Part shown: positions 21,128 through 64,000 of the stretch, piece by piece
Position numbering within the stretch: position 1 is the first letter of the stretch
How the letters are laid out: every line of letters begins with the position of its first letter
DNA from: Blastocatellia bacterium
GTDB taxonomy: Bacteria > Acidobacteriota > Blastocatellia > RBC074
Assembly: GCA_043783625.1 (NCBI GenBank)
Contig: JAYVZE010000200.1
Location: 14,097-78,096, forward strand
DNA length: 64,000 nt
Reading direction: 5' to 3'
Notes under the pieces: model-generated
Told to the model about the DNA's origin: nothing
The model's input: only the letters and a program-made list of their open reading frames with translations
Databases searched by the model: none
Made by a program: the position numbers and the translations under genes

Positions 21128-21210
21128 AAGTTGCGTAAGAACTTTACGAAGAGGCGTAGCTCAATTCCCAAAATCGTTATAGCTTTCAGAAAATGAACTT
21201 TCAATCAAAG

Positions 21211-21392
21211 CTCCAACGGAGCGAAATACAATAGCCCAGGGTGCAACCCTGGGTAGGATCAGAAATAGAATCCAAGCCCTGAAGGGGCGAAATAAATTAT
21301 TGCGCCCTTTCAGGGCTTGATTTTTTCCGTGCAATCAACCCAGGGTTGCACCCTGGGCTATTGTATTGCCACCCCTTCGGGGTTCTGTTCGG
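21211..21392. repeat. about 180 bp nested-palindrome element (family 3), copy 1
   Basis: Outer IR atagcccagggtgcaaccctggg / cccagggttgcaccctgggctat, inner IR gccctgaaggggcg / cgccctttcagggc, terminal ccaacggagcg. Second copy at 24091..24286. Confidence 0.7.
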
Positions 21393-25385: not shown

Positions 25386-25444
25386 GCGCACTACGTTTGC
25401 GTAGCTTCGCTCGCAAACGGCAGGCAGGATGCCTGCACTCCCAG
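25386..25444. repeat. hairpin cluster ending in ggcaggcaggatgcctgcactcccag (GCAGGATGC hairpin family)
   Basis: Stem gcaggca/tgcctgc around GGA loop followed by CTCCCAG, plus upstream hairpins ctacgtttgcgtag. Confidence 0.6.
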
Positions 25445-25445
25445 C

Positions 25446-33424: not shown

Positions 33425-36400
33425 CTAAAAAGTAAGTTTCATCGCTAATTGAATCTGACGCGGATCAAAGGTGCGGTTAATCGTGCCAAAAGAAGCACTC
33501 GAACGATTGCCGTTCGCCGGATAAAAATTCGTCTTGTTCAGGAAGTTGAAAAATTCTCCGCGAAATTGCAGCTTCGACCCTTCCCACGGTAAGCGAAAGT
33601 TTTTATGCAATCCCAAATCAACTTGAAAATAGGGATGGCTGCGCACTGTATTGCGTCCCGCATTGCCAAACGGTAGCGAGCGGTCAGTGGGGATGACGAC
33701 ATTATTGAGGTTAAAATAATTTGTAATCGTACGTTCTCCACTTGGTGCGAGCGCATCGCCGATCACATTCGGACGCGGATTGCTGCTGCCAACGCCGAAA
33801 GCTGCGGCGGGTGAATAGGTCAGCGTGATCGGCTGCCCGCTCCACATATTGTTGATAAAACTCATCTGCCAACCACCAACCAACGCATCGGCGAGAGCCG
33901 GCATCTTCGCGCCAAAGCGACGCCCGTTACCCAGCGGCATATCCCACACTACGCTGGTCACATTCGTCAACGTTTGGTCGTATGCCGACAAGCCTTTTTC
34001 CGCAGCGAGATTGAAATAATTTTGCGGCCCCGGCGAATTGCCGTTGGGGTTTTCCAGCACCTGCGCCGAATTATCCATCGCCTTTGACCAGGTAAACGAA
34101 TTCAATACATACAACCCGCCAGAAACGCGCCGCTCAAAGCGGGCTTGCAAACCATGATAATTTGACCAGCCGCCAGGAAAGTACGCGTTGATCGTAGCAA
34201 ACGTCGTAATCCGACGGCGCGCTTGCAGCGTAGCATTTTCGGTCGTCGCGTTCGGACGTGCCTGATTGAAGTCAGCCACCATCGGCAATTTCACCGCACG
34301 ATTCCCCACGTAAGCAACGTCCAGCAGCGTATTGCGAGCAATCTCTCGTTGCAGCGAAAGGAACCAGCTTTGCACATACGAACTCGGCAAATCACGCGGA
34401 ATATATTTCACCGAAGCGTTAAGCGGACGGAAGCTGGACGGCGAAGTAAAGTCCGTTGGATAGCCCTGCCCCGTCGTACGGAAGGTCGCATCCGTCGGCA
34501 ACTGATTGACGACTCCATTGACGACTTGCGGGCCGTTGACCGCTAACAGATTCGAGGTACCAGCGCGATTGAAATGGTTGAAGCTGATGCCAAAACCGCC
34601 GCGTGCGGTAATCTTCAAAGGCCCGCTGTAAGCAAAGCCAAGCCGTGGCCCCCAATTATTGCGATCAGGGTTCAGCAGGGAGCGTCCAGCCAAAGAATCG
34701 CCCGTTGGAAAAATAATCGCATTTGCCACCGGATCGAAATTGCTAATCTTGTTATCGCGTTCCCATTGCGGTGTCGCGTATTCATAGCGGACACCTAAAT
34801 TCAACGTCAATTTTGAATTCACCTTGAAATCATCCTGCACATAACCGAAATGCATCCGCTGACGATATTGCGCGATGAAAAAATTCACCAGCGCATATTG
34901 GCTGCGCAGACCGAAAAGAAAATCGGCTACGTTATAGGTTGCACTGTCCGCTACACCACCCGTCGGACGGCTGAAATTGCCGCCATAAGTGTCCTGCCCA
35001 TATAACGGATTCACGTCCATGATTTCAGTGTTGACGCTCTGATATTCATAGCCCGTTTTGATGGAGTGCCTGCCCTTTAAAAACGAGTAGTTCACTTTCG
35101 GATTGATGACAAACGGATGTTGCCATTGCGGATTTGAAGGACGACGTCCGAGGCTGGTGAAGCCCGTAATATTTTGGGTCGTCAGCGGCCCGGTCAACGT
35201 GCGATCTTCGGGCAATCCGGTGATGCCAAATAATTCTTTCATGCTGGGACCGCCAATGCCCACAGGCTCTTTGCCTGCGCGTGTACGCGTAATTCCCATA
35301 CGGAATTCCAACAACGAAGTCGTTGTCAACGTCCTCGTAATAGCTCCGGCAAGTTGCTGATTCAGCACCCTCGTGAAGCCGTTCCCTGACCCGCCGGACG
35401 CGCCTGGAATGACAGGTTCATTGAAGACGTTGCTCTTGCGCTGACCGATGCGCACAAATGCCGTCGTCCGCGTGTTAATTTGTTGGTCAAACTTCAGATC
35501 AAACTTGTCATTAAAATCTTTGCTGCGCGGTGAATATTGAAAATTATTAGCGCGTCCGGCGATGGTCGGCGTAGGAAGATTCTTGAGTACCTGTAACGCG
35601 AACGGCGTGATTTTATTGGTTGGAATCGCTGTATTCGCCGCGAACGTTTCATTCGTCAGCGGATTACGAACCGGTTTGTCAAAGAGTCCAATGCGGTCAT
35701 TCAGAGTTGGGATTGAAGTAAAGACCGGCACACGACTGACTTCGCGGAAGCCTTCGTAACTCAAAAAGAAAAATGTACTGTTGCGGCGAATCGGTCCGCC
35801 CAAGACGCCGCCGAATTGATTACGTTGCAACACGGGTTTAACGCCGCCGAGCGGTTTGAAAAATCCAACCGCATTGAAATTCGTATTACGCACAAATTCC
35901 CACAACGCACCGTGAAATTGATTCGTACCGCTCTTCACCGAAGCGTTGATCGTCGCGCCACCGCTACGTCCAAATTCGGCACTCATGTTGTTGGTTACGA
36001 CTTTGAATTCTTCCAGCGCATCAGGGGAAACCTGCATTGCCTGATTGGAAAAATTCTGATTACTGGTTCCGTAAGAATTATTGTCTACGCCATCGAGCAG
36101 GAAATTATTGAAGGTGCTGCGCAGCCCGTTAGCATTGAACGAACCTTCGCGCGCATCGCCGCCCTGTGAATCTACAGATTGCGAAAGTGTGGATTGACGG
36201 ATGCCCGTCGAGAGCAACGCCAGTGCCGAGTATTGGCGACCATTCAACGGTAATTCGACAATTTGTTGACGATTGATCACCTGTCCACGGTCGCTGGATT
36301 CAGCCTCGACGAGACTGGCTCCGCCCGTAACCTGTACGGTTTCCGTCAAGGAACCAACTTTCAAAACCATATCAACTCGCTGGCGTGCGCTGACGGTAAC

Positions 36401-36703
36401 GGTGATGCCATCAGCAACCGCAGTTGAAAAACCACTCATCTCCGCGCTGACCTTGTACGTCCCGATCTTGACGTTCAAAAATTGGTAGCTCCCATTTTCA
36501 TCGGTCAATGCCGTAGCAGTAATTCCAGTGCCGCTATTCGTCAAAGTAACTTTGACTCCAGCAACGATATTGTCACTGGCATCGCGGATCGAACCCAGCA
36601 CCGTGGCGGTATCGAATTGGGCGAAGGCTGGTGTCATGAATAGAAAATAGAGAACGACGACGACTTCCGCCGCACGTCGCAGCAGGCGAGTAAAACTCTT
36701 CAT
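33425..36703 (-). CDS. TonB-dependent receptor with N-terminal carboxypeptidase-regulatory-like domain
   Basis: Signal peptide, CarbopepD_reg N-terminus, 1092 aa, C-terminal KLTF. Confidence 0.8.
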   Translation of the reverse strand: MKSFTRLLRRAAEVVVVLYFLFMTPAFAQFDTATVLGSIRDASDNIVAGVKVTLTNSGTGITATALTDENGSYQFLNVKIGTYKVSAEMSGFSTAVADGITVTVSARQRVDMVLKVGSLTETVQVTGGASLVEAESSDRGQVINRQQIVELPLNGRQYSALALLSTGIRQSTLSQSVDSQGGDAREGSFNANGLRSTFNNFLLDGVDNNSYGTSNQNFSNQAMQVSPDALEEFKVVTNNMSAEFGRSGGATINASVKSGTNQFHGALWEFVRNTNFNAVGFFKPLGGVKPVLQRNQFGGVLGGPIRRNSTFFFLSYEGFREVSRVPVFTSIPTLNDRIGLFDKPVRNPLTNETFAANTAIPTNKITPFALQVLKNLPTPTIAGRANNFQYSPRSKDFNDKFDLKFDQQINTRTTAFVRIGQRKSNVFNEPVIPGASGGSGNGFTRVLNQQLAGAITRTLTTTSLLEFRMGITRTRAGKEPVGIGGPSMKELFGITGLPEDRTLTGPLTTQNITGFTSLGRRPSNPQWQHPFVINPKVNYSFLKGRHSIKTGYEYQSVNTEIMDVNPLYGQDTYGGNFSRPTGGVADSATYNVADFLFGLRSQYALVNFFIAQYRQRMHFGYVQDDFKVNSKLTLNLGVRYEYATPQWERDNKISNFDPVANAIIFPTGDSLAGRSLLNPDRNNWGPRLGFAYSGPLKITARGGFGISFNHFNRAGTSNLLAVNGPQVVNGVVNQLPTDATFRTTGQGYPTDFTSPSSFRPLNASVKYIPRDLPSSYVQSWFLSLQREIARNTLLDVAYVGNRAVKLPMVADFNQARPNATTENATLQARRRITTFATINAYFPGGWSNYHGLQARFERRVSGGLYVLNSFTWSKAMDNSAQVLENPNGNSPGPQNYFNLAAEKGLSAYDQTLTNVTSVVWDMPLGNGRRFGAKMPALADALVGGWQMSFINNMWSGQPITLTYSPAAAFGVGSSNPRPNVIGDALAPSGERTITNYFNLNNVVIPTDRSLPFGNAGRNTVRSHPYFQVDLGLHKNFRLPWEGSKLQFRGEFFNFLNKTNFYPANGNRSSASFGTINRTFDPRQIQLAMKLTF

Positions 36704-52945: not shown

Positions 52946-53926
52946 TTATTGCTCGTAACCAACGCGCTGTTCAATTGCGCCGAAAATCGAATAACCGTCG
53001 TTATCGAAAACTTCCATACGCACCGTATCGCCAAATCGCATGAAACCAGTTTTGCTTGCACCTTCGTCCAGCATTTCAATCACACGGCGTTCGCTGATGC
53101 AGGCGGAACCTGCGCTGCGATCTGCGTTAGAAACAGTACCGGAGCCGATGATTGTGCCAGCTCGCAAACGTCTGGTTTTCGCGGCGTGTGCGATCAATTC
53201 GTAAAAACCAAAATTCATTTCGCTACCGTTCGGATGTCCGAACCACGCGCCGTTCCATAGAATATTCAGCGGTAAATGCACGCGCCCATCACGCCACGCA
53301 TCACCGAGTTCGTCAGGTGTAATCGCCACCGGAGCGAATGCTGTTGCAGGCTTCGCGTGAAAAAACCCGAAGCCCGTTTTCATTTCGCGCGGGCCAAAAC
53401 CGCGCAAACTCCAGTCATTGATTTGCACAATTAATTTTATGTGTGATGGAGCTTCTTCCGGCGTACATCCCATTGGCACATCGTCCACGATCACGCCGTA
53501 TTCGCCTTCAAAATCAATGCCGTGTTCTTCGCTCAAAAATGGTGCATCATCACACGCACCGAGGAAGTCGTCCGACCCGCCTTGATACATCAACGGGATC
53601 GTCTCGAAATCCGCCATCGGCGGCGTATTGAAAGCTTTTTCCATCAGTCGCCCATGATTCAAAAATGCCGAGCCGTCGCACCATTGATAAGCACGGGGCA
53701 ACGGCGCAGCCACAGTTTTGGCTTCGAACGTAAAAGAGTCTTTCACCGTTCCAGCCCTGAGTTCAGCCGCCAGCATTTGCAATTGTGGTGCTGTCTTCGC
53801 CCAATCATCAAGCGCGTCTTGCATCGTCGAAGCAATTGTTTGCGCAGAAACAGCACGATTTAAATCATTGGCGACCACGATCAATGCGCCATCACGTGTT
53901 CCATTTTTAAGCGTGGCAAGTTTCAT
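52946..53926 (-). CDS. fumarylacetoacetate hydrolase (FAH) family protein (candidate 2-keto-3-deoxy-sugar-acid dehydratase)
   Basis: 326 aa. FAH-fold metal-binding Glu/Asp pattern in C-terminal half. Confidence 0.65.
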   Translation of the reverse strand: MKLATLKNGTRDGALIVVANDLNRAVSAQTIASTMQDALDDWAKTAPQLQMLAAELRAGTVKDSFTFEAKTVAAPLPRAYQWCDGSAFLNHGRLMEKAFNTPPMADFETIPLMYQGGSDDFLGACDDAPFLSEEHGIDFEGEYGVIVDDVPMGCTPEEAPSHIKLIVQINDWSLRGFGPREMKTGFGFFHAKPATAFAPVAITPDELGDAWRDGRVHLPLNILWNGAWFGHPNGSEMNFGFYELIAHAAKTRRLRAGTIIGSGTVSNADRSAGSACISERRVIEMLDEGASKTGFMRFGDTVRMEVFDNDGYSIFGAIEQRVGYEQ

Positions 53927-53929
53927 AAA

Positions 53930-55336
53930 TTACGAGCGAACGTATTCAAATTCAAACGGCTGATGATTGACACCGACTTTCGGCGGCGCGATCCAGTTGG
54001 CAATTTTTCCAACTTCAGTCACAGGAGTCATCAGGCTTTGCACATATTCGCGGTCTGCTAACATCGGCAGCCATTCACTCGAACGTCGCACAAATTCTTC
54101 TGCCGAAAGCGGCACACCTTGCACATCAAAATTGTATCCGGCATACGCTCCAACATGGCGATGGAAGCGGCGGCTCGGTAAATACAGGCGTTCGGCGATG
54201 TCTTCGTCAGCTAAGATTTTATTCCAGCGCAGCAATCCGCGCTCGCAATCTTTGCCGTATTCATTGCGCAGAACTTCATTCAACGCATTGCGCAGTGGCA
54301 CTTCTTTGAATTGCAGGCGATTCTCTTCCAGCACTTCAATGCTGTAACTGCCTTCCGCCACGATGTGATCTTCGTAGCGTTTTTGTTCTTCGTAGCGACC
54401 TTTCAAACCCGCCGCAAAAAAATCCGCTGAGTTGGAACTAATCTCGCCACCAAACAAATCAAGCGAATAGCTGTACCAGTAATTGATGTATTTCTGAATA
54501 ATCTCAAGCGGAATGCCGCCGCGTGCTTTCACCTCTTCATTGGGGCTTTCTTTCATCAACTGTGCGGTGCGTTTGACCACACGACCGATGCCCGTTTCAC
54601 CAACAAACAAATGATGCGCCTCTTCGGTCAGCATAAAACGACAAGTGCGTTGCAACGGCTCAAAGCCTGATTCAGCCAGTGCCGCCAACTGATATTTGCC
54701 GTCGCGGTCGGTGAACATCGCGAACGCGAAAAAGTTCAGCCAGTCGTCGCACGGTTGATTGAAGGCTTGCAGGATGCGCGGCTTGTCAGCATCACCGCTG
54801 CGGCGTTGCAATAACTCATCAGCTTCTTCGCGTCCGTCGCGTCCGAAATAACCGTGCAGCAAATAGACCATCGCCCATAAATGACGACCTTCTTCGACGT
54901 TGACTTGAAATAAATTTCTGAGGTCATAGAGCGATGGACAAGTCTTGCCGAGTTGTCGTTGTTGCTCTACAGAAGCAGGTTCGGTGTCGCCTTGCGTGAC
55001 AATGATGCGGCGTAGCGAGTTGCGAAATTCGCCCGGCACTTCCTGATAAACCGGCTTGCCGTAATTATCGCCAAAGCCGATAGTCGCGCCCTGCTGCGCC
55101 GGAGTCAGAAAAATTCCCCAGCGATAATCGGGCATTTTCACATAATCAAAATGTGCCCAGCCCGAAGGTTCTACGCTGATGGCAGTACGCAAATACACAT
55201 CTTTTTGCTGAAAACCATCCGGCCCCATTTCGTTCCACCAGCTCAAATAATTGGGCAGCCATTTTTCCAGCGCACGTTGCAAACGCACGTCATCGGCGAG
55301 ATTTACATTGTTAGGAATGCGGTCGTAAAGGCTCAT
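53930..55336 (-). CDS. boxB: benzoyl-CoA 2,3-epoxidase, diiron oxygenase component BoxB
   Basis: About 468 aa from MSLYDRIPNNVNLADDVRLQRALEKW. Diiron ligand motifs EEGRHLW and LTEEAHH. Adjacent to boxC. Confidence 0.7.
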   Translation of the reverse strand: MSLYDRIPNNVNLADDVRLQRALEKWLPNYLSWWNEMGPDGFQQKDVYLRTAISVEPSGWAHFDYVKMPDYRWGIFLTPAQQGATIGFGDNYGKPVYQEVPGEFRNSLRRIIVTQGDTEPASVEQQRQLGKTCPSLYDLRNLFQVNVEEGRHLWAMVYLLHGYFGRDGREEADELLQRRSGDADKPRILQAFNQPCDDWLNFFAFAMFTDRDGKYQLAALAESGFEPLQRTCRFMLTEEAHHLFVGETGIGRVVKRTAQLMKESPNEEVKARGGIPLEIIQKYINYWYSYSLDLFGGEISSNSADFFAAGLKGRYEEQKRYEDHIVAEGSYSIEVLEENRLQFKEVPLRNALNEVLRNEYGKDCERGLLRWNKILADEDIAERLYLPSRRFHRHVGAYAGYNFDVQGVPLSAEEFVRRSSEWLPMLADREYVQSLMTPVTEVGKIANWIAPPKVGVNHQPFEFEYVRS

Positions 55337-55339
55337 AGT

Positions 55340-55456
55340 GATTGCGGAGTGCGGATTTGGGATTGCGGGTTCAAGAATTGGACTTACAAAAATTTTTCTC
55401 CAATATTTGCGGAGCACAGTTTTTTTACCGCAACCCACAATCCCAAATCCGCAATC
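55340..55456. promoter_or_regulatory. 32 nt imperfect inverted repeat containing doubled GATTGCGG half-sites, in the boxC-boxB intergenic spacer
   Basis: Arm gattgcggagtgcggatttgggattgcgggtt at 55340..55371 pairs with accgcaacccacaatcccaaatccgcaatc at 55427..55456. Extra ttgcggag copy in spacer. Confidence 0.5.
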
Positions 55457-55458
55457 AA

Positions 55459-57081
55459 TTAAGTGCGTTTGTAATCAAATTTCGCCTGCGTCGGTTTGCC
55501 GTAATTGGTCAGTGCACCATTTTCGCCAACGGCGTTGGGGCGTTGAAAAATCCAGTTTTGCCACGCGGTCAATCGTCCGAAAATTTTTGTGTCGTGCGTC
55601 TCTGCTCCGGCAAAACGTAAGTTCGCTTCCATCCCTGTCAGCGCGTCGGGCGAAAGCGCAGTGCGCTCTTCAATCGCCAAACGGATTTCATCATCCCAAT
55701 CCAGATCGTCAGGCGCAGTGGTAATCAAACCCGCTTCATCAGCGGCTTCGGTGTCAAAGCGTGCGGTTTGCAAGACGGCTTCGACTTGTTCGGATTGCGC
55801 GAGGAAGCGCGATTGCAAGCGCGTCAAACCGTTACTCATCGGCAACGCTCCGGCGTTCAGCTCACTCGTAGCAATTTCAACCGGATGCGATGCATCGTTG
55901 AGCATGTAAGTGCGATCAGCCGCAAGCGCGAGTTCAAGCAAGCAGCCCGCAAAACAACTGCCGGGTTCGATCAGCGCGAAGAAACTCTTCGCCGTCAGGT
56001 CAAGCCGCCGCAACGTCCGCGCCATAAATAAAAGCGTTTCACGCACCAGCCAATGTTCACGCTGTTCGGTCAAGACGCGATCCACTGCCAGCACATTTTC
56101 AGCATTGCCTGTCGTTCGCAAAATCAGCAAACCGATTTCGGGTTCGTTGGCGCGTAAGTGCAACAGCGCGTTATCAAGGTCACGGAACGCGGCGAGCGGC
56201 CACCATGCATCACCAAGTTTTTGAATTTCATTCGCGTCAGTTGGTTGCGTATCTTCCGGCGCACGTAACGTCAATTCGGCATAACGCTTGTCCCGATGCA
56301 TACGCAAACTGACGTGATGGTATTCGCGTGCGTTGTCACTGCTTTCAATTTGCAACGGATGCAGTTTGATTCCTTGCAGCGATTCGCTTGTCGCCGCCAG
56401 TTCACGCGCTCGTGCCGTAATCGCTTCATCAAATTTTGTTGTCGGAAAATAATCGTCAATTAATCCCCATTCTTTCGCACGTTTGGCTTTGAAGCCTTCC
56501 GCTAACGTAGAAAAAATGTCCGCACGGTCACGGCGAATTTTGCGTTTGTCTACTAATCGCGTCAGCCCGCCCGTTCCCGGCAACACGCCGAGCAGTGGCA
56601 CTTCAGGTAATGAAACTGCGGCGTTGCCATCATCCACCAGATAAATTTCTTCGCACGCAATTGCCAGTTCATAACCGCCGCCCGAAGCCGTGCCGTTCAG
56701 CGCGGCGATGTATCGCTGCCCCGAATTGCGCGAAGCGTCTTCAATGCCGCAGCGCGTTTCGTTCGTAAATTTACAGAAATTGACTTTGTGCGCGTGCGAC
56801 GAAGTGCCAAGCATGTATATGTTTGCACCTGCGCAAAAGATGCGCGGTTTCAAACTCGTGACAATGACGACGCACACTGACGGATGCTCAAAGCGTAGTC
56901 GTTCGACAGCATCGGCGAGTTCAATGTCTACGCCAAGATCGTAAGAATTCAGCTTTAATTTATAGCCCTCAAACAGCGTCGCATCTTCATTCACATCCAT
57001 CGTCAACGTAGCGATTGCGCCATCAACGCTGAGCCTCCAATGCCGATAGAGTTCGGGAGAAGTTTCAAAATCAATATGCAT
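55459..57081 (-). CDS. boxC: 2,3-epoxybenzoyl-CoA dihydrolase (benzoyl-CoA-dihydrodiol lyase) BoxC, crotonase superfamily
   Basis: 540 aa. N-terminal MHIDFETSPELYRHWRLSVDG. Two enoyl-CoA hydratase-like domains. Confidence 0.7.
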   Translation of the reverse strand: MHIDFETSPELYRHWRLSVDGAIATLTMDVNEDATLFEGYKLKLNSYDLGVDIELADAVERLRFEHPSVCVVIVTSLKPRIFCAGANIYMLGTSSHAHKVNFCKFTNETRCGIEDASRNSGQRYIAALNGTASGGGYELAIACEEIYLVDDGNAAVSLPEVPLLGVLPGTGGLTRLVDKRKIRRDRADIFSTLAEGFKAKRAKEWGLIDDYFPTTKFDEAITARARELAATSESLQGIKLHPLQIESSDNAREYHHVSLRMHRDKRYAELTLRAPEDTQPTDANEIQKLGDAWWPLAAFRDLDNALLHLRANEPEIGLLILRTTGNAENVLAVDRVLTEQREHWLVRETLLFMARTLRRLDLTAKSFFALIEPGSCFAGCLLELALAADRTYMLNDASHPVEIATSELNAGALPMSNGLTRLQSRFLAQSEQVEAVLQTARFDTEAADEAGLITTAPDDLDWDDEIRLAIEERTALSPDALTGMEANLRFAGAETHDTKIFGRLTAWQNWIFQRPNAVGENGALTNYGKPTQAKFDYKRT

Positions 57082-57106
57082 ATTTCTTCACTGGGCGCGT
57101 CTTTTA

Positions 57107-57210
57107 CTGGGAGTGCCCGCATCCTGCGGGCGAATCCGTACTCAGGGAAACCTTTTTATCGCAGGTAGTTGCTCGCCACGGCTTCGCCCGCAGGATGCGG
57201 GCGCTCCCAG
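57107..57210. repeat. inverted pair of GCAGGATGC hairpin motifs (ctgggagtgcccgcatcctgcgggcg / cgcccgcaggatgcgggcgctcccag)
   Basis: Exact reverse-complement arms with 53 nt spacer between ligase and boxC genes. Confidence 0.65.
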
Positions 57211-57212
57211 TA

Positions 57213-58706
57213 TTATTCTCGTAACTTGAATCGTTGAATTTTGCCGCTCGCGGTTTTCGGCAATTTATTCACAAAATCAATCAGGTGCGGATACTGAAAG
57301 CGTTGTAACCGCGCTTTGCACCATTGCTGCAATTCGTTTTTCAGTACAGGCGTTTCTGCATTATGCAAAATAATCACAGCGCGAATCCGCAGCACGCCAT
57401 CAACGTTGACACCAACCACAGCGGCTTCATTGACTGCCGCGTGTTCGAGCAAAACATTTTCCATTTCAATCGGCGAAACCCATTCGCCGCCAACTTTGAG
57501 CATGTCGTCGGCGCGACCTTCATACCAATAAAAGCCCTCTGCATCGCAGCGATAACGATCTCCTGTGACCATCCATTCGCCTTGCATCGTGCGGCGTGTC
57601 TTCTCACGGTTGCGCCAATAATACGCCGCCGCGCTTGCGCCCTTAACCAGCAAATGTCCCGTCTCGCCAATAACGACAAGGCTTCCGTTGTCATCTATAA
57701 TTTTTAATTCGTAACCCGGTACGGCTTTGCCGCTCGATCCCGGCTGACATTCTGCCGTCGTATTCGAGCAGAAAATATGCAGCATTTCAGTCGAACCAAT
57801 ACCATCCAAAATTTCTAAGTCGTAGGTTTCTTTCCACCGCCGCCACGTCTCAGGCGCGAGCGGTTCGGCAGCAGAGATACAGCGACGCACCGAAGACAAA
57901 TCGCCTTTTCCGCCCTCATTCAAAATTGCGTTGTAAAGCGTCGGCACCAAACATAACACCGTCGGGCGATAGCGTTCGATTGCTTCGAGAATACCACGCG
58001 GCGCAACTCGTCCGGGCAACAGCACCGTAGCCGCTCCAATACTGAACGGGAAGCTTAGCGCGTTACCAATTCCGTAAGCGTGAAACAACACGCGCCCCAA
58101 CACAATGTCGTTTTCATCCAATGCCAGCACGTGTTTGCTGTAGGTCTCACACGTCGCCGGAATCGCGCCGTGCAAATGGACTACACCTTTGGGATTGCCG
58201 GTCGAGCCGGAACTATAAAGCCAAAACGCCATGTCATCGCGGTGCGTGTTGGCGGGAGAAATTTCTGTGGGATAGGCTTTGAGTAATTCGTTCAAATCTT
58301 CGGCGACGATCACGTGAACGGCTTCGCCATAACCAACTAACGCTTCGTTTAATTTCTCAGCATTTGCGGCATCAACAATCACCACGCAGGCTTCGCTGTC
58401 TTCCAGAAAAAAACGGTAATCGCTGACTTTATACAAAGGATTCACTGGCACAGGAACCGCACCAATGCGCATCGCGCCAAAAAAAGAAATTGGAAAAGCA
58501 GGCGTGTCGCCCAGAATCAGCAACACACGATTTTCACGCGCTACGCCAAGTGCTTGCAGTGCGCCTGCCATGGCACAAACACGCCGGAACAATTCGTCAT
58601 AGCTGATTTTTTCATCGCCAAAATAGATGGCGGTACGCGCACCGCGTCCTGCCGCCAAATTGTCGTCAATCAATGTACTCGCGTTGTGTCGCGCTGTGAA
58701 CATCAT
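57213..58706 (-). CDS. benzoate-CoA ligase family (AMP-binding adenylate-forming enzyme)
   Basis: SSGSTGNPKG P-loop-like AMP motif, TGD motif, about 497 aa from MMFTARH. ATGA overlap with upstream esterase stop. Confidence 0.7.
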   Translation of the reverse strand: MMFTARHNASTLIDDNLAAGRGARTAIYFGDEKISYDELFRRVCAMAGALQALGVARENRVLLILGDTPAFPISFFGAMRIGAVPVPVNPLYKVSDYRFFLEDSEACVVIVDAANAEKLNEALVGYGEAVHVIVAEDLNELLKAYPTEISPANTHRDDMAFWLYSSGSTGNPKGVVHLHGAIPATCETYSKHVLALDENDIVLGRVLFHAYGIGNALSFPFSIGAATVLLPGRVAPRGILEAIERYRPTVLCLVPTLYNAILNEGGKGDLSSVRRCISAAEPLAPETWRRWKETYDLEILDGIGSTEMLHIFCSNTTAECQPGSSGKAVPGYELKIIDDNGSLVVIGETGHLLVKGASAAAYYWRNREKTRRTMQGEWMVTGDRYRCDAEGFYWYEGRADDMLKVGGEWVSPIEMENVLLEHAAVNEAAVVGVNVDGVLRIRAVIILHNAETPVLKNELQQWCKARLQRFQYPHLIDFVNKLPKTASGKIQRFKLRE

Positions 58707-59638
58707 TTTGCGCTTGGAGCTTTCAGGAGTCCTTGAATGTTCAGCCATTCGCCAAACCGCTCAACCCAACTATCCACTGGCCAGCCGCGATTGGTCAGTC
58801 CGAAACCGTGGCCGCCTTTTGAATAAATGTGTAATTCGGCAGGGCGTTTGGCGGCTTTCCATTCGAGATAAAGTTTGGCGCTGCTCCCGGAAAATGTTTG
58901 GTCATCATCGGCGACCGCGATGAAGAGCGGCGGCGCGTCAGCCACGACGGGCAAGCCGCTCGTGCTGCCGCCATAAATCGGCGCAGCGAAATTCGGACGG
59001 CTGTCGGCGTCGTGTTGCATGACGACACTCATCGTCAACATGCCTCCTGCCGAGAATCCCATCAGTCCAATGCGATCAGGCGCGATGCCCCATTCGACGG
59101 CGCGTTGCCGCACGAGCTTGACGGCTTGTCTGCCATCCGCTGTTGCAAATTCAGCGGCCTTTTGCTGTGCCGGATTCAACACGGGTGCAGCCGCAGGCGT
59201 AGTTGGCGGTTGCGGCGTGCGCGCCCTGTTCGCCGCCGCTAGTTTTTGGTAGTCCTCTTCGCTGCCGGTATCCGCCACGCGGTACTTGAGTACGAAAGCC
59301 GCGACGCCACGCGCTTGTAACCAGCGGGCTACGTTATGGCCTTCTTTCTCGATGGCGAGATGCACAAAAGCCCCGCCAGGTGCAACGATAATCGCTGTGC
59401 CGTTCGCCTTATCACGTTCCGGCAAATACGCCGTCAACGTCGGCTGCGTCACATTGCGGATGCGCGTTTGTTTGTCAGGATTAACAAACGTGACTTCCTT
59501 TTGTTGCGCATTTTCAGAACCGGGTGCGATGCCGGAATACAAGGGAATCACGGGCTGTTGCGCACGAACGCTGGCGGACGCGCACAACAACAAGGCTGCG
59601 ATGCGGCAGGCTGTTTTAGAGAAATTGATTCTTGTCAC
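58703..59638 (-). CDS. secreted alpha/beta-hydrolase esterase with Pro/Thr-rich insertion
   Basis: Signal peptide. GFSAGG nucleophile elbow. Confidence 0.65.
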   Translation of the reverse strand: MTRINFSKTACRIAALLLCASASVRAQQPVIPLYSGIAPGSENAQQKEVTFVNPDKQTRIRNVTQPTLTAYLPERDKANGTAIIVAPGGAFVHLAIEKEGHNVARWLQARGVAAFVLKYRVADTGSEEDYQKLAAANRARTPQPPTTPAAAPVLNPAQQKAAEFATADGRQAVKLVRQRAVEWGIAPDRIGLMGFSAGGMLTMSVVMQHDADSRPNFAAPIYGGSTSGLPVVADAPPLFIAVADDDQTFSGSSAKLYLEWKAAKRPAELHIYSKGGHGFGLTNRGWPVDSWVERFGEWLNIQGLLKAPSAK

Positions 59639-59660
59639 AAGTCTCCTTATTCTTTTAGTT

Positions 59661-60752
59661 CTATTTGCCTAGATGTTGATGGAAGAAGCGAGCGACCTCT
59701 TGCCAGATTTCAACGGACTCCGGGGCTTGATAAAGACCCACGTAAAGCGAGTGAGACATCGCTTCAAAAACGTGAAGCTGTGCCGCTACTCCCGCCTGAC
59801 GTAATTTGCGATGGATGCGCACAGTGTCACTGAGAAAAATATCCCGAGTACCGGAAATCAGAATCGTGGGTGGTAATCCTTTCAGGTCTCCGTATATCGG
59901 AGAAATCAAGGGGTTCTTCAAATCTTCCGTCCCCGCATAGACCTGAGCCGCCAAAGGAAGAAATCCGTCAGGCGTTGGAAGTGCGTTGTCAATGTACTCA
60001 TTCGTGCGCAAACTATCGCTCGCCAGCGTCAAATCAACCCAGGGTGTCCCGCTAAAGATCGCGCCGGGTAAGGGCAGTTTCAGTGCCTTCAGCTTCAGCG
60101 CCGTCGCAATAGATAATCCCCCGCCACAAGAGCTGCCGCCAATTCCGATGTTGGCAGGTTTGTACTGCCTCATGACTTCCTTTATTACGGTGACAGTGTC
60201 ATCCAAAGCTGCGGGGAACGGATGTTCGGGAGCCAAGCGAAAGTCTACTGAGATAACCTTCATTTTCGTGTGAGCAGCAAGCAAGATGCCTTCCGAGATA
60301 CCAGTTCCGCCGCCGGAGAAAACATAACCACCTCCATGCAAATGGATGAGAACTCTGTTCCGATTCTCGGATGGAATCTGGTCAGGGGTTATCGTGTGAA
60401 TCTTCACTCCAGCCATGACACCAGGTTCAATTTTTCCCTGAAAGGTTTCGCTGATCGCTCTTACCAATCGCAACGCCCCAGCCGCCCTGGCCGAACGAGA
60501 GGCTTCCCATTCTTCCTTGCTCCTGGGAGTTGTAGAGCGAAAGAAGTTCAGCGCAGGTTCAATGGATGCCTCGATTGATTTTTGCAATTCAGGGCTGGGG
60601 TTGAGTGGCACCGGAATGCGGTGCGCCGGGATTTGGCGATCTGGCGGCTTGCCTGCATCCTGCGCTGCTTGTGAATAAGCGGCACTAGTGGGTAACCAGA
60701 TAAGCACAACCAGAAACATCAGATGGCTTCGATAGTTTATTTCGCTTCTCAT
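59661..60752 (-). CDS. secreted alpha/beta hydrolase fold-3 esterase/lipase (HSL-like)
   Basis: HGGGY oxyanion motif, GGSSCGG nucleophile region. Alternative start at 60719. Confidence 0.65.
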   Translation of the reverse strand: MRSEINYRSHLMFLVVLIWLPTSAAYSQAAQDAGKPPDRQIPAHRIPVPLNPSPELQKSIEASIEPALNFFRSTTPRSKEEWEASRSARAAGALRLVRAISETFQGKIEPGVMAGVKIHTITPDQIPSENRNRVLIHLHGGGYVFSGGGTGISEGILLAAHTKMKVISVDFRLAPEHPFPAALDDTVTVIKEVMRQYKPANIGIGGSSCGGGLSIATALKLKALKLPLPGAIFSGTPWVDLTLASDSLRTNEYIDNALPTPDGFLPLAAQVYAGTEDLKNPLISPIYGDLKGLPPTILISGTRDIFLSDTVRIHRKLRQAGVAAQLHVFEAMSHSLYVGLYQAPESVEIWQEVARFFHQHLGK

Positions 60753-60782
60753 AAATTATGACCCCTTGACTGCCCCAACTCG

Positions 60783-60813
60783 TTATAAAAATCCAAGTCC
60801 CATTCGATGTCAC
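60783..60813. repeat. 31 nt direct repeat copy B (ttataaaaatccaagtcccattcgatgtcac), matching 63927..63958
   Basis: 26/31 identity with copy A. Overlaps the last codons of the GH106-like gene. Minus-strand translation gives ..DIEWDLDFYNELG, echoing the C-terminus of the gene at the window end. Confidence 0.55.
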
Positions 60814-63800
60814 TTGCCTGTCTTTTGCCAAACAATTGCTTGCACGTATGGCGTCAGCACAACCGGCCCAACTAAGCCGTAGGGCTGCACGATTCCTCGC
60901 TTGGCGACATCATCGTCCAGCTTCACCAAACGATTATTCAACGTCGTGGCGACGCGCACCGCGATGGTGTTACGACCAGGTTTGAGATACGCGCCGATGT
61001 CGCCCGCCGCGCTGAGTTGGTCAATGCTGACGGGCTTGTCATTCACGGTGACAGTAAAAGTATCAAAGACTTCGCCAAGACTTAATCGTGCGCCATGCGC
61101 CTTCGTCCAATTGGACGGCAGCTCAATACTCGTAGTGTAAACACCGATGCCCGAAGTATTTTGCAGCACCGGAATTTCAGGCCACGCTTTGAGTTCTTTC
61201 AGATCAAGTTCGCTTTGTGTTTTGCGGGTTTCCACCGCTGCGGCTCCGAATGTCGTCGCGTAGGGATTCGCGGGCTGCCAGTCTTCTACTTTCAGACTCC
61301 AATTCGCTTTGGTTAAGTCTAATGCGGCGGGTGCGGCAGCGATGGTGCTGCGAACGGTGCGACCATTGCTAAGCGTTGTGCTGTATGTTCCTGATTTTGC
61401 CGCGCGGATTACAATTGAGTTTCCTTCTACGACCGCTTCGTCGGCGGTGGTTTGAGTGACGTGCAGCGCAGGAGCCGCGCCGCCAAAGCGATTGGGTTGC
61501 TCACTTAACGCAATCAACATGCCATTATCCCGCGATAACCGCAGGCGAAATGTGATGCGGTCGCCGCTGGTTTTGTAATTCGCAATCGGCGTAATTTTTC
61601 CTGACCACGCATCCAGCAGGTAAGGCTGTCCTCGCCCTTCCAAACTTACCTCGCGCTCCACGGGTTGTCCCGCAGCAGGCTCAAACAGTGTGGTCGGTTC
61701 GTCCGGCGGACTCATAATTCCCTGATTGTAGAAAAAGTAATAATCCGTTTTGGTGGCGTCGTCGCGCCGACGAAGGCTGAGCAATGAAGAGGGAGAAGCA
61801 GGTTCTGCTGCGGGGCGAACGCCCAATGCGCGCAATTTTTCTGGCACGTCGGATTCGTGCGCTGCGCGTGATACCGAACGCTCCGCCAGCAATTCGTCGA
61901 TCACAGATTTCAACGTCGCATCAGCTTCCGGCTTGTTGCCGGGCGTACGATCCGGCGGGGTTCCAATCACAATAATAGGCAGTCCCGCGCGTGCAAATCC
62001 AAGAATCTTGCGTGCGATTTCAATCGGCATTGCCGTCTTGACTGGATCAGTTGGGGGACCTTGTTCGCTATCAAGAATCAACGCTTTGTATGCAGGGCCA
62101 TTTGCTGCAAGACGTTTTCCGGTAACGGTGGCATTCGGCAAATTCAACATGTTCGGATTGAGGTAATCCCGCGTGTAACCCGCCTCTTGCAGTTTCGCAT
62201 CACCCCAATGCCGAAACTTCATGCTTTGCGATGGAGGGTAAAGATAATTCTGCATGTACACCGCTACATCGGTTTTTGCGTCTCCCTGCGTGAGGACTTG
62301 TTGGTTGCGAGCGAAATAATCGTTGTACGTGCGAGCGTCTATCCAAAACGGATTGCGTGGCCCCCACGCATTGGAAAACCCCGCTGCGCCAAAATTGTGA
62401 TAGCCCGGCCATTTCCACGTCGCGCCATCGCGGTACGGATAGACGTGATAGACAAGCTTCGTGATACCGCCGCCGAAACTGCGGTGCATCTTAATCACAG
62501 CATCCTGAAAAGTCTGTGCATTATTACGATTAAGCGTGGGGCAACATTCAGTCGAATACCAAGAATTTCCGGTCATGTGATTTGCCGAAGCCATTGGCAA
62601 GTAATTGTCAATTTCATCACCTACAAACAACGATTCATATTCAGGGCGATCAACCGCCGCCGTAGCTTGCACCATATCCGTGATCGGAATTGTCAGATTG
62701 GCTTCGCCTTCCACTTGCACGCGCAAAACGTTGTTGTACTTGCGAGCCCATTGCCGCAGCGGAGCGATTTGTTTTTCCAGCCAGATGTCGCCACGCACAG
62801 CATAAAAATCTTCGCGCACGCGCGGCGCACTGCCATCATTGAAATCGAAAATTTCGCGGAACAACGCAGGCAAATTTGGCATCAGCGGATAGTGGCGACG
62901 GCTACTGAATTCCTCCGCCATTTTGTTCGTCCAGAGTTCATCGGGGCTACCGCGATCTACGGAATGTGAATCAATAAAAATGTCTCCGCCATTTGCTTTC
63001 AAAAGCACCTTTACTTCCGGGCTTAACTCGCGTTCCAACCCGTTAATTAGCTCGGCATAGCCTTCTTCGCTGAACGGATCAGGCTGCGCAAAAACGCCGC
63101 GTGACCAGAAACCGATAACCATCCATTGCGCACCCGCCGGAGTCGTTGGGGCAGCCCACTGCAATTCGCCAGCCGTTGTTGCTCCCAATACGCCATCCTG
63201 ATTTTTCCCCGTGACTATCGCTGTCAAATCAATCACCGAAGAGCGATCCAGTTGCACTGACCCTGTCGCCTGACACGGCGTTTGTACGCAGCGATACGCC
63301 AGCACCGCAATAAGATTGGCGCGTTTTGCCTGCGGCCCTCGCCCTGCACCAGGCGGCGGCCCCGTCGGAGCGGCAGCCCCACGCGGCGGAGCAACTCCGA
63401 ACCCGCTACGGCTGCCTTGTGTTTGTGTAGGTGGCGGAACTGCGCCTTGAAATGTAGCTCCGGCGTTAACTGCAACTTTACCAACGAACAAAGATTTTCT
63501 TGCATGGTCAGCATCTATCGAATAGCCCACCGGATTTACAGTCGGCCCATGACTAAGGCTGACTTTCACGCCAAGCTGATTCGCAGCGGTCAGCAACGCG
63601 ACGAGTTGATCGTTGTTCGGATATGCGCCTTGCCCGATTTCTATACCAGCGATTCCGCTTTCGTGAAGTTGCCGTACAGTGTTTTTGATTTCCGCCGGAT
63701 CTGCTGTCGCGGGCATATTCATCCGCACCCACGGCAAATCTACGGCAGGCGGATGCGCGAATGTCGCCGCAGTAAGCGGAGTCACTGGATTAAACTTGCG

Positions 63801-63899
63801 CCATTCAGTGCGTAGCGTTTGAGCCACGTTGCCATTTTGGGCAGTCACAGAAAAGACGATCAGCAGGATGCTGGTCATAACAAGAAACGATTTCTTCAT
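60810..63899 (-). CDS. secreted large glycoside hydrolase, GH106-like (putative alpha-L-rhamnosidase), paralog of 15873..19217
   Basis: Signal peptide and N-terminal PWVRMNMP...EIKNTVRQLHESGIAGIEIGQG motif paralogous to the WWHWMNGN...MKRVGIGG motif of the other copy. 1029 aa. Contains GA-rich low-complexity insertion. Confidence 0.5.
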   Translation of the reverse strand: MKKSFLVMTSILLIVFSVTAQNGNVAQTLRTEWRKFNPVTPLTAATFAHPPAVDLPWVRMNMPATADPAEIKNTVRQLHESGIAGIEIGQGAYPNNDQLVALLTAANQLGVKVSLSHGPTVNPVGYSIDADHARKSLFVGKVAVNAGATFQGAVPPPTQTQGSRSGFGVAPPRGAAAPTGPPPGAGRGPQAKRANLIAVLAYRCVQTPCQATGSVQLDRSSVIDLTAIVTGKNQDGVLGATTAGELQWAAPTTPAGAQWMVIGFWSRGVFAQPDPFSEEGYAELINGLERELSPEVKVLLKANGGDIFIDSHSVDRGSPDELWTNKMAEEFSSRRHYPLMPNLPALFREIFDFNDGSAPRVREDFYAVRGDIWLEKQIAPLRQWARKYNNVLRVQVEGEANLTIPITDMVQATAAVDRPEYESLFVGDEIDNYLPMASANHMTGNSWYSTECCPTLNRNNAQTFQDAVIKMHRSFGGGITKLVYHVYPYRDGATWKWPGYHNFGAAGFSNAWGPRNPFWIDARTYNDYFARNQQVLTQGDAKTDVAVYMQNYLYPPSQSMKFRHWGDAKLQEAGYTRDYLNPNMLNLPNATVTGKRLAANGPAYKALILDSEQGPPTDPVKTAMPIEIARKILGFARAGLPIIVIGTPPDRTPGNKPEADATLKSVIDELLAERSVSRAAHESDVPEKLRALGVRPAAEPASPSSLLSLRRRDDATKTDYYFFYNQGIMSPPDEPTTLFEPAAGQPVEREVSLEGRGQPYLLDAWSGKITPIANYKTSGDRITFRLRLSRDNGMLIALSEQPNRFGGAAPALHVTQTTADEAVVEGNSIVIRAAKSGTYSTTLSNGRTVRSTIAAAPAALDLTKANWSLKVEDWQPANPYATTFGAAAVETRKTQSELDLKELKAWPEIPVLQNTSGIGVYTTSIELPSNWTKAHGARLSLGEVFDTFTVTVNDKPVSIDQLSAAGDIGAYLKPGRNTIAVRVATTLNNRLVKLDDDVAKRGIVQPYGLVGPVVLTPYVQAIVWQKTGK

Positions 63900-63910
63900 A
63901 GCTATTCCTA

Positions 63911-64000
63911 TTACGCGCCAAATTCTTTATAAAAATCTACGTCCCATTCGATTTCGCCCATCATAAATGGCGGCGGAGTTTGCATCCAGATCATTGTGCC
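63911..64000 (-). CDS. C-terminal fragment of a gene continuing beyond the window (ends ...MIWMQTPPPFMMGEIEWDVDFYKEFGA)
   Basis: Open minus-strand frame to the window edge with TAA at 63911..63913. The 3' end carries direct-repeat copy A. Confidence 0.4.
   Translation of the reverse strand, partial: GTMIWMQTPPPFMMGEIEWDVDFYKEFGA

Follow-up and report, generated by a model that had tools for sequence, protein, structure and literature searches.

The locus at the high-coordinate end of the window (the whole 64-kb stretch of DNA analysed here) probably unites two variants of a single Acidobacteriota aromatic-catabolism cluster, since the GH106-like gene and the FAA_hydro_N_2 gene (FAA_N2 below) lie 6 nt apart in relatives and are separated here by an extra block of genes. 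DNA of the second variant would have entered a VOC-GH106-like-FAA_N2 recipient through one illegitimate junction, in a manner resembling homology-facilitated illegitimate recombination (HFIR). The repeat on either side of the GH106-like gene is a scar of the ordinary kind that gene-cluster shuffling leaves, and gives no evidence of a recent arrival of this gene. The evolutionary inference drawn in the initial annotation is thereby reversed: the recent addition appears to be a benzoate-CoA ligase/boxC/boxB module with two esterases, not the GH106-like gene.

The two direct-repeat copies, at 60783-60813 (copy A) and 63927-63957 (copy B), were identical at 27 of 31 positions (26/31 had been counted initially), and ungapped extension paired 60774-60811 with 63918-63955 at 32/38 positions (84%). 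A degenerate 26-mer derived from both copies gave only two matches in the 64-kb window, with both strands searched, and none in 100 shuffles. The junction was base-for-base the same in two independent public assemblies (L001 and L002) and is therefore not an assembly artefact of this window. The 31-nt repeat around the GH106-like gene, as first described, is thus real. Read on the minus strand, copy B gives ...GEIEWDVDFYKEFGA*, the final codons of a gene that runs into the window from its edge. The last 29 codons and TAA of this gene occupy 63911-64000 (minus strand) and hold the extended copy B at 63918-63955; the full-length gene was taken from L001, whose sequence matches the window without a difference over 6,817 nt. 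It encodes a VOC/glyoxalase-fold, extradiol-dioxygenase-like protein of 320 aa with a Pfam Glyoxalase match and weak NCBIfam matches to HpaD/catechol 2,3-dioxygenase. The search returned 1,417 homologs, and the nearest among the matches listed all end in ...EI.WDVDFYKEFG. Between the VOC and GH106-like genes lies an 11-nt spacer (63900-63910, minus strand) orthologous to that of relatives; over the spacer region, TAATAGGAATAGCTATG in the window and CAATAGGAGTAGCTATG in L015 were identical by eye at 15 of 17 positions.

Copy A (60774-60811 when extended) is part of a VOC-tail relic of 20 codons (DIEWDLDFYNELGQSRGHNL) plus TGA at 60749-60811 on the minus strand. There it encodes DIEWDLDFYNELG and then QSRGHNL*, in a frame one base off the GH106-like ORF. 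Relic codon 1 (GAC, 60811-60809) overlaps the GH106-like stop TGA (60812-60810), and the relic stop overlaps the ATG of the next gene (ATGA). Similarity to VOC proteins covered 13 residues, and tblastn found no other part of a VOC gene at the site; DIEWDLDFYNELG agreed with the EI.WDVDFYKEFG of all close homologs at 9/13 aa and 29-34/39 nt. The earlier view of the distal copy as a relic of a 3' end is borne out: it is a non-functional remnant, belongs to the gene family of the upstream gene and shows where a rearrangement took place. The counter-explanation offered with that view, a conserved C-terminal codon block of a protein family, holds in part, the sequence being such a block of this VOC sub-family; the window carries only two copies in 64 kb.

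The relic and the resident VOC tail were identical at 32 of 39 nt. Of the seven differences, three are synonymous and also found as variants among orthologs; the other four are private to the relic, all non-synonymous and all at residues invariant in intact orthologs. Had the relic evolved neutrally from the time the lineages split, about 14 private substitutions would be expected in 39 nt (P = 0.002). The relic postdates these splits, an estimate that comes from only 39 nt. Its synonymous differences, being shared with orthologs, would fit a different allele better, if not conclusively, than a copy of the resident gene. Divergence of the relic under coding constraint was considered and rejected in favour of a distinct allele with subsequent decay: six of the seven differences fell at third positions (p = 0.007), and after polarisation three of the four private ones did (p = 0.11), all of them non-synonymous. 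Among the 120 listed VOC homologs of the 1,417, we found no donor tail with the L/N/L replacements, the best matches being the nearest clade, and no intact VOC ending in ...DIEWDLDFYNELGQSRGHNL.

A promoter/terminator scan returned nothing at the relic. An AAGGGG Shine-Dalgarno-like motif lies within it at 60762-60767, 9 nt ahead of the ATG of the first esterase. Judged by its sequence, the relic is probably non-coding today. The first esterase appears to take its Shine-Dalgarno-like motif and the spacer behind it from the last ~20 nt of the relic, which suggests that the block is read, and presumably expressed at present, as a member of the same minus-strand operon. Over its 20 codons the relic has no internal stop, and its frame is offset by +1 from that of the GH106-like gene at the UGA-C stop. 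This would be expected if the relic were still translated, either as a small ORF or after a +1 shift at AAG-UGA-C, which would give the GH106-like protein a VOC-like tail of 20 residues. Such translation is hardly credible: there is no slippery site, tRNA-Lys would presumably be unable to re-pair from AAG to AGU, GH106-like orthologs stop at the same codon with nothing comparable beyond it, and the private changes of the relic fall on invariant residues. Moreover, the sole in-frame start of the ORF, which has just 28 codons, is a TTG with no ribosome-binding site by eye. Both a programmed +1 frameshift and a small ORF were rejected, on the sequence and on orthologs that have no equivalent. We therefore suggest that 60749-60811 be annotated as a gene remnant, neither a small ORF nor the frameshifted end of a gene.

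The GH106-like gene itself (60810-63899, minus strand, 1029 aa) is intact and a long-standing cluster member. Its orthologs are 81-88% identical, and the common C-terminus ...VWQKTGK is the family norm. Divergence at 4-fold sites was 0.37-0.48 for the GH106-like gene, 0.42-0.47 for VOC and 0.44-0.47 for FAA, so the GH106-like gene is not younger than its flanks. The gene dates back to the lineage splits and is a stable, old-established partner of the dioxygenase/hydrolase backbone. The proposal of a recent acquisition is thus not supported: the neutral divergence equals that of the neighbours, the C-terminus is normal, and the extra DNA is instead a 6,883-nt block downstream. The idea that the gene entered the 3' end of its neighbour, or was duplicated together with it, also finds no support, as L014 and L015/L016 share the VOC-to-GH106-like order without a second tail copy. 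Nor did we find orthologous loci that lack the gene and carry a single repeat copy at an uninterrupted site: L012 has lost the gene and keeps its first ~10 codons, and in L018 the VOC gene is followed by an FAA_N2 relic and then an esterase.

Taken literally, that idea has the GH106-like gene entering the resident VOC gene at its 3' end, with duplication of ~38 nt, either like a target site or by co-duplication, with later decay of the distal copy. Two direct repeats do flank the gene, and removal of the box cassette together with one TAATTTATGA copy leaves VOC-GH106-like-VOC tail-FAA_N2, which resembles a split VOC-FAA_N2 backbone. However, the model is contradicted because the GH106-like gene dates back to the lineage splits and the relic is much younger. 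Every relative carrying the gene is without the second tail copy, three of the seven tail differences are synonymous variants common to other orthologs, and there is no mobile-element machinery; we regard this history as very unlikely.

The gene had also been called a second rhamnosidase paralog. Its protein scored 83 bits against PF17132 (gathering score 29), over model positions 306-708 only, and 105 bits against the NCBIfam equivalog NF049897 (cutoff 1300); its best PDB match was 5mqm (E = 9e-9 over ~230 aa). By comparison, the true GH106 of the window, at 15873-19217, scored 1134 bits against PF17132. Identity between the two was ~21% over 734 aa when the L014 ortholog, itself 88% identical to the GH106-like protein, served as query, and the window's own GH106-like protein gave no match at the 15873-19217 gene at E <= 1e-3. 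The GH106-like gene is therefore not a close paralog of that GH106.

The block missing from related loci spans 6,883 nt (53927-60809, minus strand) and stands where these loci have a 6-nt spacer (TTGCGT/TTGCTG) from the GH106-like stop to the FAA_N2 start. Homology to L014, L015, L016 and L021 ends right after ...GGCAAGTGA (at the GH106-like TGA) and resumes, 6,883 nt on, at ATGAAACT of FAA_N2. The block consists of the relic and five genes on the minus strand. The first is an alpha/beta-hydrolase esterase of 363 aa (59661-60752; Abhydrolase_3, hormone-sensitive-lipase/epsilon-lactone-hydrolase-like), followed by a second esterase of 311 aa (58703-59638) that is DLH/acetyl-esterase-like and has a 73%-identical ortholog in L009, behind a truncated copy of the first hydrolase. 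Then come a benzoate-CoA ligase family gene (57213-58748; TIGR02262, 520 bits, cutoff 375), boxC, encoding 2,3-epoxybenzoyl-CoA dihydrolase (55459-57081; TIGR03222 equivalog, 832 bits, cutoff 712), and boxB, encoding benzoyl-CoA 2,3-epoxidase subunit B (53930-55438; TIGR03225 equivalog, 740 bits, cutoff 499). The true start of boxB is probably ~35 codons downstream of the listed GTG, the alignment beginning at residue 38. The ligase, BoxC and BoxB, all above curated NCBIfam cutoffs, make up an aerobic benzoyl-CoA (box) module; the BoxA reductase and the downstream aldehyde dehydrogenase are not among the five genes of the block. Neither GC nor GC3 showed a step at either block junction, and the block contains a host-typical palindromic element.

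Beyond the block lies the FAA_N2 gene (52946-53926, minus strand, 326 aa), a fumarylacetoacetate-hydrolase-family gene that is the usual downstream partner of the GH106-like gene and a candidate homologous anchor. It has 83-87% aa identity to the gene located 6 nt past the GH106-like stop in L014, L015 and L021, and it is also present in L012 and L018. In its 5' third, 4-fold divergence was 0.57 for the window copy versus 0.43 among relatives, the pairs being non-independent, which gives a hint towards this anchor. The first esterase is 81% identical to the gene behind the intact VOC in L018/L019. Its 4-fold divergence from L018 was 0.31, compared with 0.47 for five backbone genes (Fisher p = 0.00075), and it looks like a recently exchanged gene. 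Relatives of this esterase occur in unrelated contexts in L007, L017, L020 and L023, and scans of genome and metagenome contigs with the esterase as query gave five loci, all truncated or in unrelated contexts.

A 13-nt direct repeat brackets the five genes. Its left copy, TCATAATTTATGA (60749-60761, minus strand), with the 10-nt identical core TAATTTATGA, covers the relic end and hydrolase start, and its right copy, TCGTAATTTATGA (53923-53935, minus strand), spans the boxB stop, TTT and the FAA_N2 start. The motif TC(A/G)TAATTTATGA encloses exactly the five genes, and the core occurs twice in the window against 0.11 expected. As the left copy is 48-60 nt in from the outer edge of the block, the repeat flanks the five-gene cassette and leaves the relic outside. 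TAATTT upstream of the first esterase or of FAA_N2 was found in no relative. The TAATTTATGA repeat hints at a nested cassette insertion and suggests that the relic may first have abutted FAA_N2, not the esterase, with at least two events. The block holds no transposase or integrase, all five genes being catabolic enzymes, and the best inverted match between its ends was 13 nt against a shuffle maximum of 12.5. A transposon or integron was rejected for want of recombinase genes and significant terminal inverted repeats.

All comparison loci are metagenome or MAG contigs. Among these related Acidobacteriota loci, the order VOC, GH106-like, FAA_N2 was present in L014 and L015/L016, and GH106-like followed by FAA_N2 after a 6-nt spacer was also present in L021/L022; the ancestral pair (GH106-like stop, 6-nt TTGC.. 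spacer, FAA_N2 ATG) thus occurs in three lineages. In L012, the VOC-GH106-like spacer and the first ~10 codons of the GH106-like gene remain, a stump that indicates gene loss. The order in L018/L019 is LysR-122aa-FAA-VOC, a decayed 5' relic of FAA_N2, esterase and FAA_N2; the scar there is a mirror image of that in the window. Sliding-window nucleotide identity and pairwise matrices, examined for a closest lineage or a point of crossover, were star-like and gave no sharp breakpoint, and no donor-type cluster with the full five-gene block was found among the loci compared.

We infer the direction of the event, that is, which half came second, and its recombination mechanism as follows. One variant has the order ...FAA-VOC-GH106-like-FAA_N2, and the other carries esterase-led cargo behind VOC; both exist among the loci compared. 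Homologous crossover would have taken place in or beyond FAA_N2, and an illegitimate joint would have connected the donor VOC gene, at codon ~307, directly to the nucleotide that follows the GH106-like stop, as in HFIR. Copy A would then be the last 20 codons of a second VOC/extradiol-dioxygenase-like gene, at the leading edge of the 6.9-kb block. If the donor read GGT GAC, GTGA would be a microhomology common to both sides of the joint.

The opposite direction, a weaker form of the initial idea, yields an identical product. Here VOC_B-GH106-like DNA of a sister variant would be imported into a recipient with ...FAA-VOC_A-esterase...boxB-FAA_N2 by homologous recombination in or upstream of VOC; the end after the GH106-like stop would join VOC_A codon ~307 illegitimately, most of VOC_A would be displaced, and the VOC_A tail and box block would be pushed downstream, as in the C-terminal displacement known from Rhs and T6SS effector loci. 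The VOC-tail scar follows naturally, because the anchor is VOC itself, and the scheme fits a displacement model with a conserved upstream anchor and the 3' end of the old gene moved downstream (PMC5361080). Furthermore, the window's LysR, 122-aa and FAA genes are slightly nearer the esterase-type L018 than L014/L015. We nevertheless consider it unlikely, if still a serious rival: two steps are needed from the arrangement common to L012, L014, L015 and L021, the required recipient arrangement was not observed among the loci compared, and the incoming fragment must end exactly at a stop codon. VOC and GH106-like also show no unusual divergence, whereas the esterase looks recently exchanged and FAA_N2 is mildly discordant.

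Deletion within one chromosome would produce the same junction in a single illegitimate event and with no DNA uptake, if VOC_B-GH106-like-FAA_N2 and VOC_A-esterase...boxB-FAA_N2 had stood in the same orientation as paralogous clusters and the DNA from the GH106-like stop to VOC_A codon ~307 was lost. It accounts for the uniform GC and GC3 and for the host-typical palindromic element in the block, and predicts that the surviving FAA_N2 is a paralog, which fits its higher divergence. However, relatives with 8 kb of downstream sequence show no second VOC or esterase/box block near the first cluster, and the lower divergence of the esterase than of the backbone genes (window versus L018) is left unexplained; a deletion seems quite improbable.

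The merger by uptake of second-variant DNA has counterparts in known systems. HFIR has been described for natural transformation in Acinetobacter baylyi, Streptococcus pneumoniae and Pseudomonas stutzeri and for conjugation in E. coli (PMC3240628), as well as by de Vries & Wackernagel 2002 (PMC122324, via PMC3240628). As in the window, one border is a gene common to the recipient (FAA_N2, or VOC if the direction is reversed), the other is an abrupt, base-precise, non-homologous joint near the anchor, and no recombinase gene is present. HFIR is, however, defined by experiments with known donor and recipient, whereas here we infer the crossover and the microhomology, and the inserted segment of the window (6.9 kb, five genes) is a complete functional module. 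Displacement of T6SS effector-immunity modules in Vibrio cholerae leaves 3' gene ends, with HFIR as the proposed mechanism (PMC5361080), and C-terminal displacement at Rhs loci was treated by Jackson et al. 2009 (PMC2935791, via PMC5361080). These arrays share with the window a complete gene followed by the orphaned 3' end of a homolog and its former downstream genes, and cargo at the same slot that varies between strains. They differ in that diversifying selection acts on them as toxin/immunity loci, whose genes are constant in their 5' part and variable in their 3' part; the window has catabolic enzymes and a 20-codon orphan, and its intact gene is separated from the orphan tail by a whole gene of an unrelated kind (GH106-like). 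Pseudogene fragments at operon breakpoints are likewise short, in-frame family fragments without the rest of the gene and with replacements at invariant residues, but the relic, unlike ordinary ones, now contains the ribosome-binding region for the gene behind it, and the history of the slot can be rebuilt with the help of companion scars in L012 and L018.

Recombination scars are well known as a phenomenon. Sister loci with different cargo and complementary scars make this a clean natural example of catabolic operon rebuilding without mobile-element genes, in Acidobacteriota, a phylum with scarce genetics. As a tentative extension, which we hold possible though doubtful, the VOC/FAA_N2 slot might be a recurrent, recombinase-free cargo-exchange site of Acidobacteriota aromatic-catabolism clusters, with the conserved flanking genes as homology anchors and short microhomologies like TAATTTATGA letting whole modules integrate in a cassette-like manner. 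If so, it would be a metabolic counterpart of the Rhs/T6SS displacement arrays, and every event would have left the end of a gene as its scar: the 3' tail of VOC in the window, the 5' stump of FAA_N2 in L018/L019 and, in L012, that of the GH106-like gene.

The direct repeat annotated around the GH106-like gene (60810-63899) exists, its copies being identical at 27/31 positions, and ungapped extension lengthened it to 32/38 (60774-60811 vs 63918-63955). A degenerate 26-mer from both copies matched only these two sites on both strands of the 64 kb, and 100 shuffles gave 0 matches. All genes concerned lie on the minus strand. Copy B encodes the final residues of the window-edge VOC gene (...GEIEWDVDFYKEFGA, then stop). 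Copy A translates as DIEWDLDFYNELG, then QSRGHNL and stop, in a frame one base off the 1029-aa GH106-like ORF. The distal copy had been read as a relic of the upstream gene's 3' end, and the relic reading was right: it is a 20-codon remnant of a VOC tail (60749-60811). Its first codon (GAC, 60811-60809) overlaps the stop of the 1029-aa ORF (TGA, 60812-60810). At the other end, the relic's stop (60751-60749) shares bases with the next gene's ATG (60752-60750). The relic was identical to the resident tail at 32/39 nt and to orthologous tails at 29-34/39. Of the seven relic-resident differences, three are synonymous and segregate among orthologs as well, and the four private changes of the relic (E>D, V>L, K>N, F>L) are all at residues invariant in intact proteins. 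This pattern fits a relic that would be the tail of a different allele, decayed after truncation. Translation of the relic, by +1 frameshift or as a small ORF, found no support.

Two public contigs, L001 and L002, were recovered by exact-protein look-up; L001 is identical to the window across 6,817 shared nt and runs beyond the window edge. The window-edge gene encodes a 320-aa two-domain VOC/glyoxalase-fold protein with weak extradiol dioxygenase matches. Among its 1,417 homologs the closest (82-94% identity) all terminate in ...EI.WDVDFYKEFG plus 1-5 residues, so the 31-mer is a conserved C-terminal codon block of this VOC sub-family. Such a block had been named as the alternative to a local duplication, and this alternative holds in part. 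The 1029-aa protein scored 83 bits against PF17132 with partial coverage and 105 bits against the NCBIfam rhamnosidase equivalog (cutoff 1300), with 5mqm as the best solved-structure match (E = 9e-9), and is predicted to be only a distant GH106 relative. Its description as a second rhamnosidase paralog was overstated, since identity to the window's bona fide GH106 (15873-19217) was ~21% with the 88%-identical ortholog from contig L014 as query; the window protein as query gave no match to that GH106 at E <= 1e-3.

Five genes follow the relic. They encode an Abhydrolase_3/HSL-type esterase and a second esterase, then a benzoate-CoA ligase family protein, BoxC and BoxB, and these three products score above curated NCBIfam cutoffs; upstream, beyond the window, are LysR, a 122-aa gene, an esterase, an FAA-family hydrolase and a PemK/RHH toxin-antitoxin pair. 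Together these genes form a cluster for aromatic catabolism and not one for rhamnose. The window also encodes GH3, a PQQ-dehydrogenase, the true GH106 and three ~1,100-aa CarboxypepD_reg + OMP_b-brl_4 (TonB-dependent-receptor-like) proteins (7948-11277, 26693-30037, 33425-36703), and, taken together, is an extensive region for plant-polymer and aromatic utilisation. The BoxB model alignment begins at residue 38 of the listed ORF (GTG 55438), so boxB probably starts ~100 nt further downstream, and an inverted repeat with 30-nt arms across the boxC/boxB boundary (55339-55457) would then be intergenic.

GH106-like orthologs with 87-88% identity were found in contigs L014 and L015 (the L016 protein is the same as that of L015), all three ordered LysR-122aa-Esterase-FAA-VOC-GH106-like-FAA_hydro_N_2. 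The VOC-GH106-like spacer is alignable between the window and L015 (15/17 nt, counted by eye). The window protein and its closest orthologs (P0122, P0123) all terminate in ...VWQKTGK, and the ends of the remaining close relatives lie no more than a few residues away. Two further loci, L021 and L022, carry the gene (85%) behind a different upstream neighbour (GH3, YjbR), and there too, as in L014 and L015, FAA_hydro_N_2 begins 6 nt past the GH106-like stop. Contig L012, whose VOC is 94% identical to that of the window, has no GH106-like gene; it retains the ribosome-binding region and first ~10 codons of the gene (39/42 nt as in the window), followed by ~190 nt with a long hairpin, then a TTGC..T spacer and FAA_hydro_N_2. 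This stretch (L012:7359-7588, also in L013) is entered by the gene caller as a 77-aa ORF, and its hairpin is long and perfect (GTGGCAACAGGCGTCAAGAGTCCA ... TGGACTCTTGACGCCTGTTGCCAC). The alignment indicates that L012 represents loss of the GH106-like gene, not a pre-insertion site. On a JGI 3300043331 contig with protein P0005, a different GH106-family gene (1136 aa) is located upstream of FAA-VOC, so GH106-type genes are recurrent around this backbone; on the same contig a gene of at least 391 aa begins 13 nt past the VOC stop.

The DNA match to L014, L015, L016 and L021 runs through ...GGCAAGTGA and diverges from the very next base, and the FAA_hydro_N_2 ortholog (83-87% aa) is located at 52946-53926; the window thus carries 6,883 nt (53927-60809) in place of a 6-nt spacer, the relic being the leading 63 nt. 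The proposed insertion or duplication of the GH106-like gene at the VOC 3' end was wrong in direction: relative to these loci the extra DNA is the block downstream, and L012, which lacks the gene, reflects loss. Neither a transposase nor an integrase was found for the block, nor any significant terminal inverted repeat, and GC and GC3 show no step there. A palindromic element inside it (57105-57212, between boxC and the CoA ligase gene) has arms matching an element at 6198-6361 and a half-site at 25424, so the block is compositionally at home in this genome. These three (the half-site spanning 25424-25446) form an intergenic REP/MITE-like family with common arms TACTGGGAGCGCC.GCATCCTGC. More long intergenic palindromes (505-579, 3803-3913; 7865-7938, 12887-12964, 13542-13629; 2834-2973; 21208-21384), whose arms span 26-48 nt at 83-97% complementarity, represent at least two additional sequence families (ATGCAGAAGCCCGCAC...; AGTCAGTAC.ACC.GCGGTAGCGGGTGG).

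Four-fold-site divergence between the window locus and its relatives was ~0.4-0.6 (K4 ~0.5-1.1). Divergence of the GH106-like gene equals that of VOC and FAA, so the gene is not young and its supposed recent acquisition was wrong in timing. Over its 39 nt the relic shows 4 private changes vs ~14 expected if neutral since the lineage splits (P = 0.002), which makes the scar younger than those splits. This age ordering, an old GH106-like gene and a younger relic, contradicts a literal target-duplication model. The first esterase differs from that of contig L018 at 46/148 four-fold sites, against 253/544 for five backbone genes (p = 0.00075), which marks it as recently exchanged cargo. The window FAA_hydro_N_2 is a mild outlier, mainly in its first 100 codons (0.57 vs 0.43 among relatives, the pairs being non-independent); this is expected if a homologous crossover there brought the block in, and no sharp breakpoint is visible.

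We consider it probable that the block is the newcomer and that two variants of one cluster merged. One homologous and one illegitimate junction would be involved, the homologous crossover in FAA_hydro_N_2 carrying the block in. The mirror scenario, import of VOC and the GH106-like gene into a VOC-esterase...boxB-FAA_hydro_N_2 recipient with displacement of all but the resident VOC tail, would yield an identical product; it is unlikely, as parsimony across lineages, the age ordering, the lower esterase divergence and the FAA_hydro_N_2 outlier favour the block as newcomer. A deletion between two paralogous clusters on one chromosome is more doubtful still. The merger would be a case of homology-facilitated illegitimate recombination in the sense of PMC3240628, a mechanism that has been proposed for T6SS effector modules, where the old gene's 3' end is left downstream (PMC5361080); Rhs 'C-terminal displacement' is cited in the latter. 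The feature adds one more case to a known class, that of recombination scars and gene remnants; its general interest is modest, and it has some value because operon remodelling in Acidobacteriota is well resolved here.

Two copies of a 13-mer, TC(A/G)TAATTTATGA, enclose precisely the esterase-to-boxB set of five genes: one closes the relic, just ahead of the esterase ATG (60749-60761), and the other comprises the boxB stop plus TTT just before the FAA_hydro_N_2 ATG (53923-53935). The 10-nt core of the 13-mer has two sites only in the window (0.11 expected), and the 13-mer is absent upstream of the esterase or FAA_hydro_N_2 in all relatives compared. Since ATGA occurs natively in both genes and boxB natively ends in TCGTAA, the non-trivial coincidence amounts to ~8/9 nt. 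Removal of the five genes with one copy makes the relic stop overlap the FAA_hydro_N_2 start, which suggests that the box cassette entered the VOC/FAA_hydro_N_2 junction first. Within the merger of cluster variants, the cassette would thus have integrated there by microhomology, and the composite would later have met the GH106-like variant; the 13-mer is suggestive of such nested integration, not proof.

First-esterase relatives (76-87% identity) mostly occur in unrelated contexts (L007, L017, L020, L023). In L018 and L019 an 81%-identical esterase occupies the same backbone slot (LysR-122aa-FAA-VOC-esterase-FAA_hydro_N_2), and the decayed first ~24 codons of FAA_hydro_N_2 (MQPATMKDGNGNGSLLVVAGDLSH against MKLATLKDGSRDGKLIVVSRDLT) lie between intact VOC and esterase (L018:4059-4150, same in L019), with intact FAA_hydro_N_2 after the esterase in L018. 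This stump is the mirror image of the window scar; cargo in the VOC/FAA_hydro_N_2 slot thus differs by lineage, each with a neighbour-gene stump. At 60726-60743 (minus; codons 4-9) six codons (GAAATAAACTATCGAAGC) that are not present in relatives follow ATGAGAAGC in the window esterase, the relatives having ATGAAAAGC-TATCTGATG; the difference resembles a small in-frame insertion within the putative signal-peptide region. An Acidobacteriota MAG (L009:5400-6200) has the esterase reduced to its last 64 codons (88%), directly before a second-esterase ortholog (73%) and downstream of a truncated FAD-monooxygenase-like ORF, and is a further decayed version of the gene pair.

Upstream, the 122-aa protein is homologous to the C-terminal ~120 residues of the adjoining PF00756 esterase (L001:1391-1759 and 1805-3073), and recombination between these repeats may account for loss of that esterase in L003, L004 and L018. 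The PemK-type toxin and RHH-like antitoxin (L001:4086-4654, opposite strand) are located between FAA hydrolase and VOC, just past the window's high-coordinate edge. The pair is absent in L014, L015 and L018, and in L003 the RHH gene stands alone at that position. L017, which carries the closest esterase relative, also has PIN toxin-antitoxin pairs around that gene.
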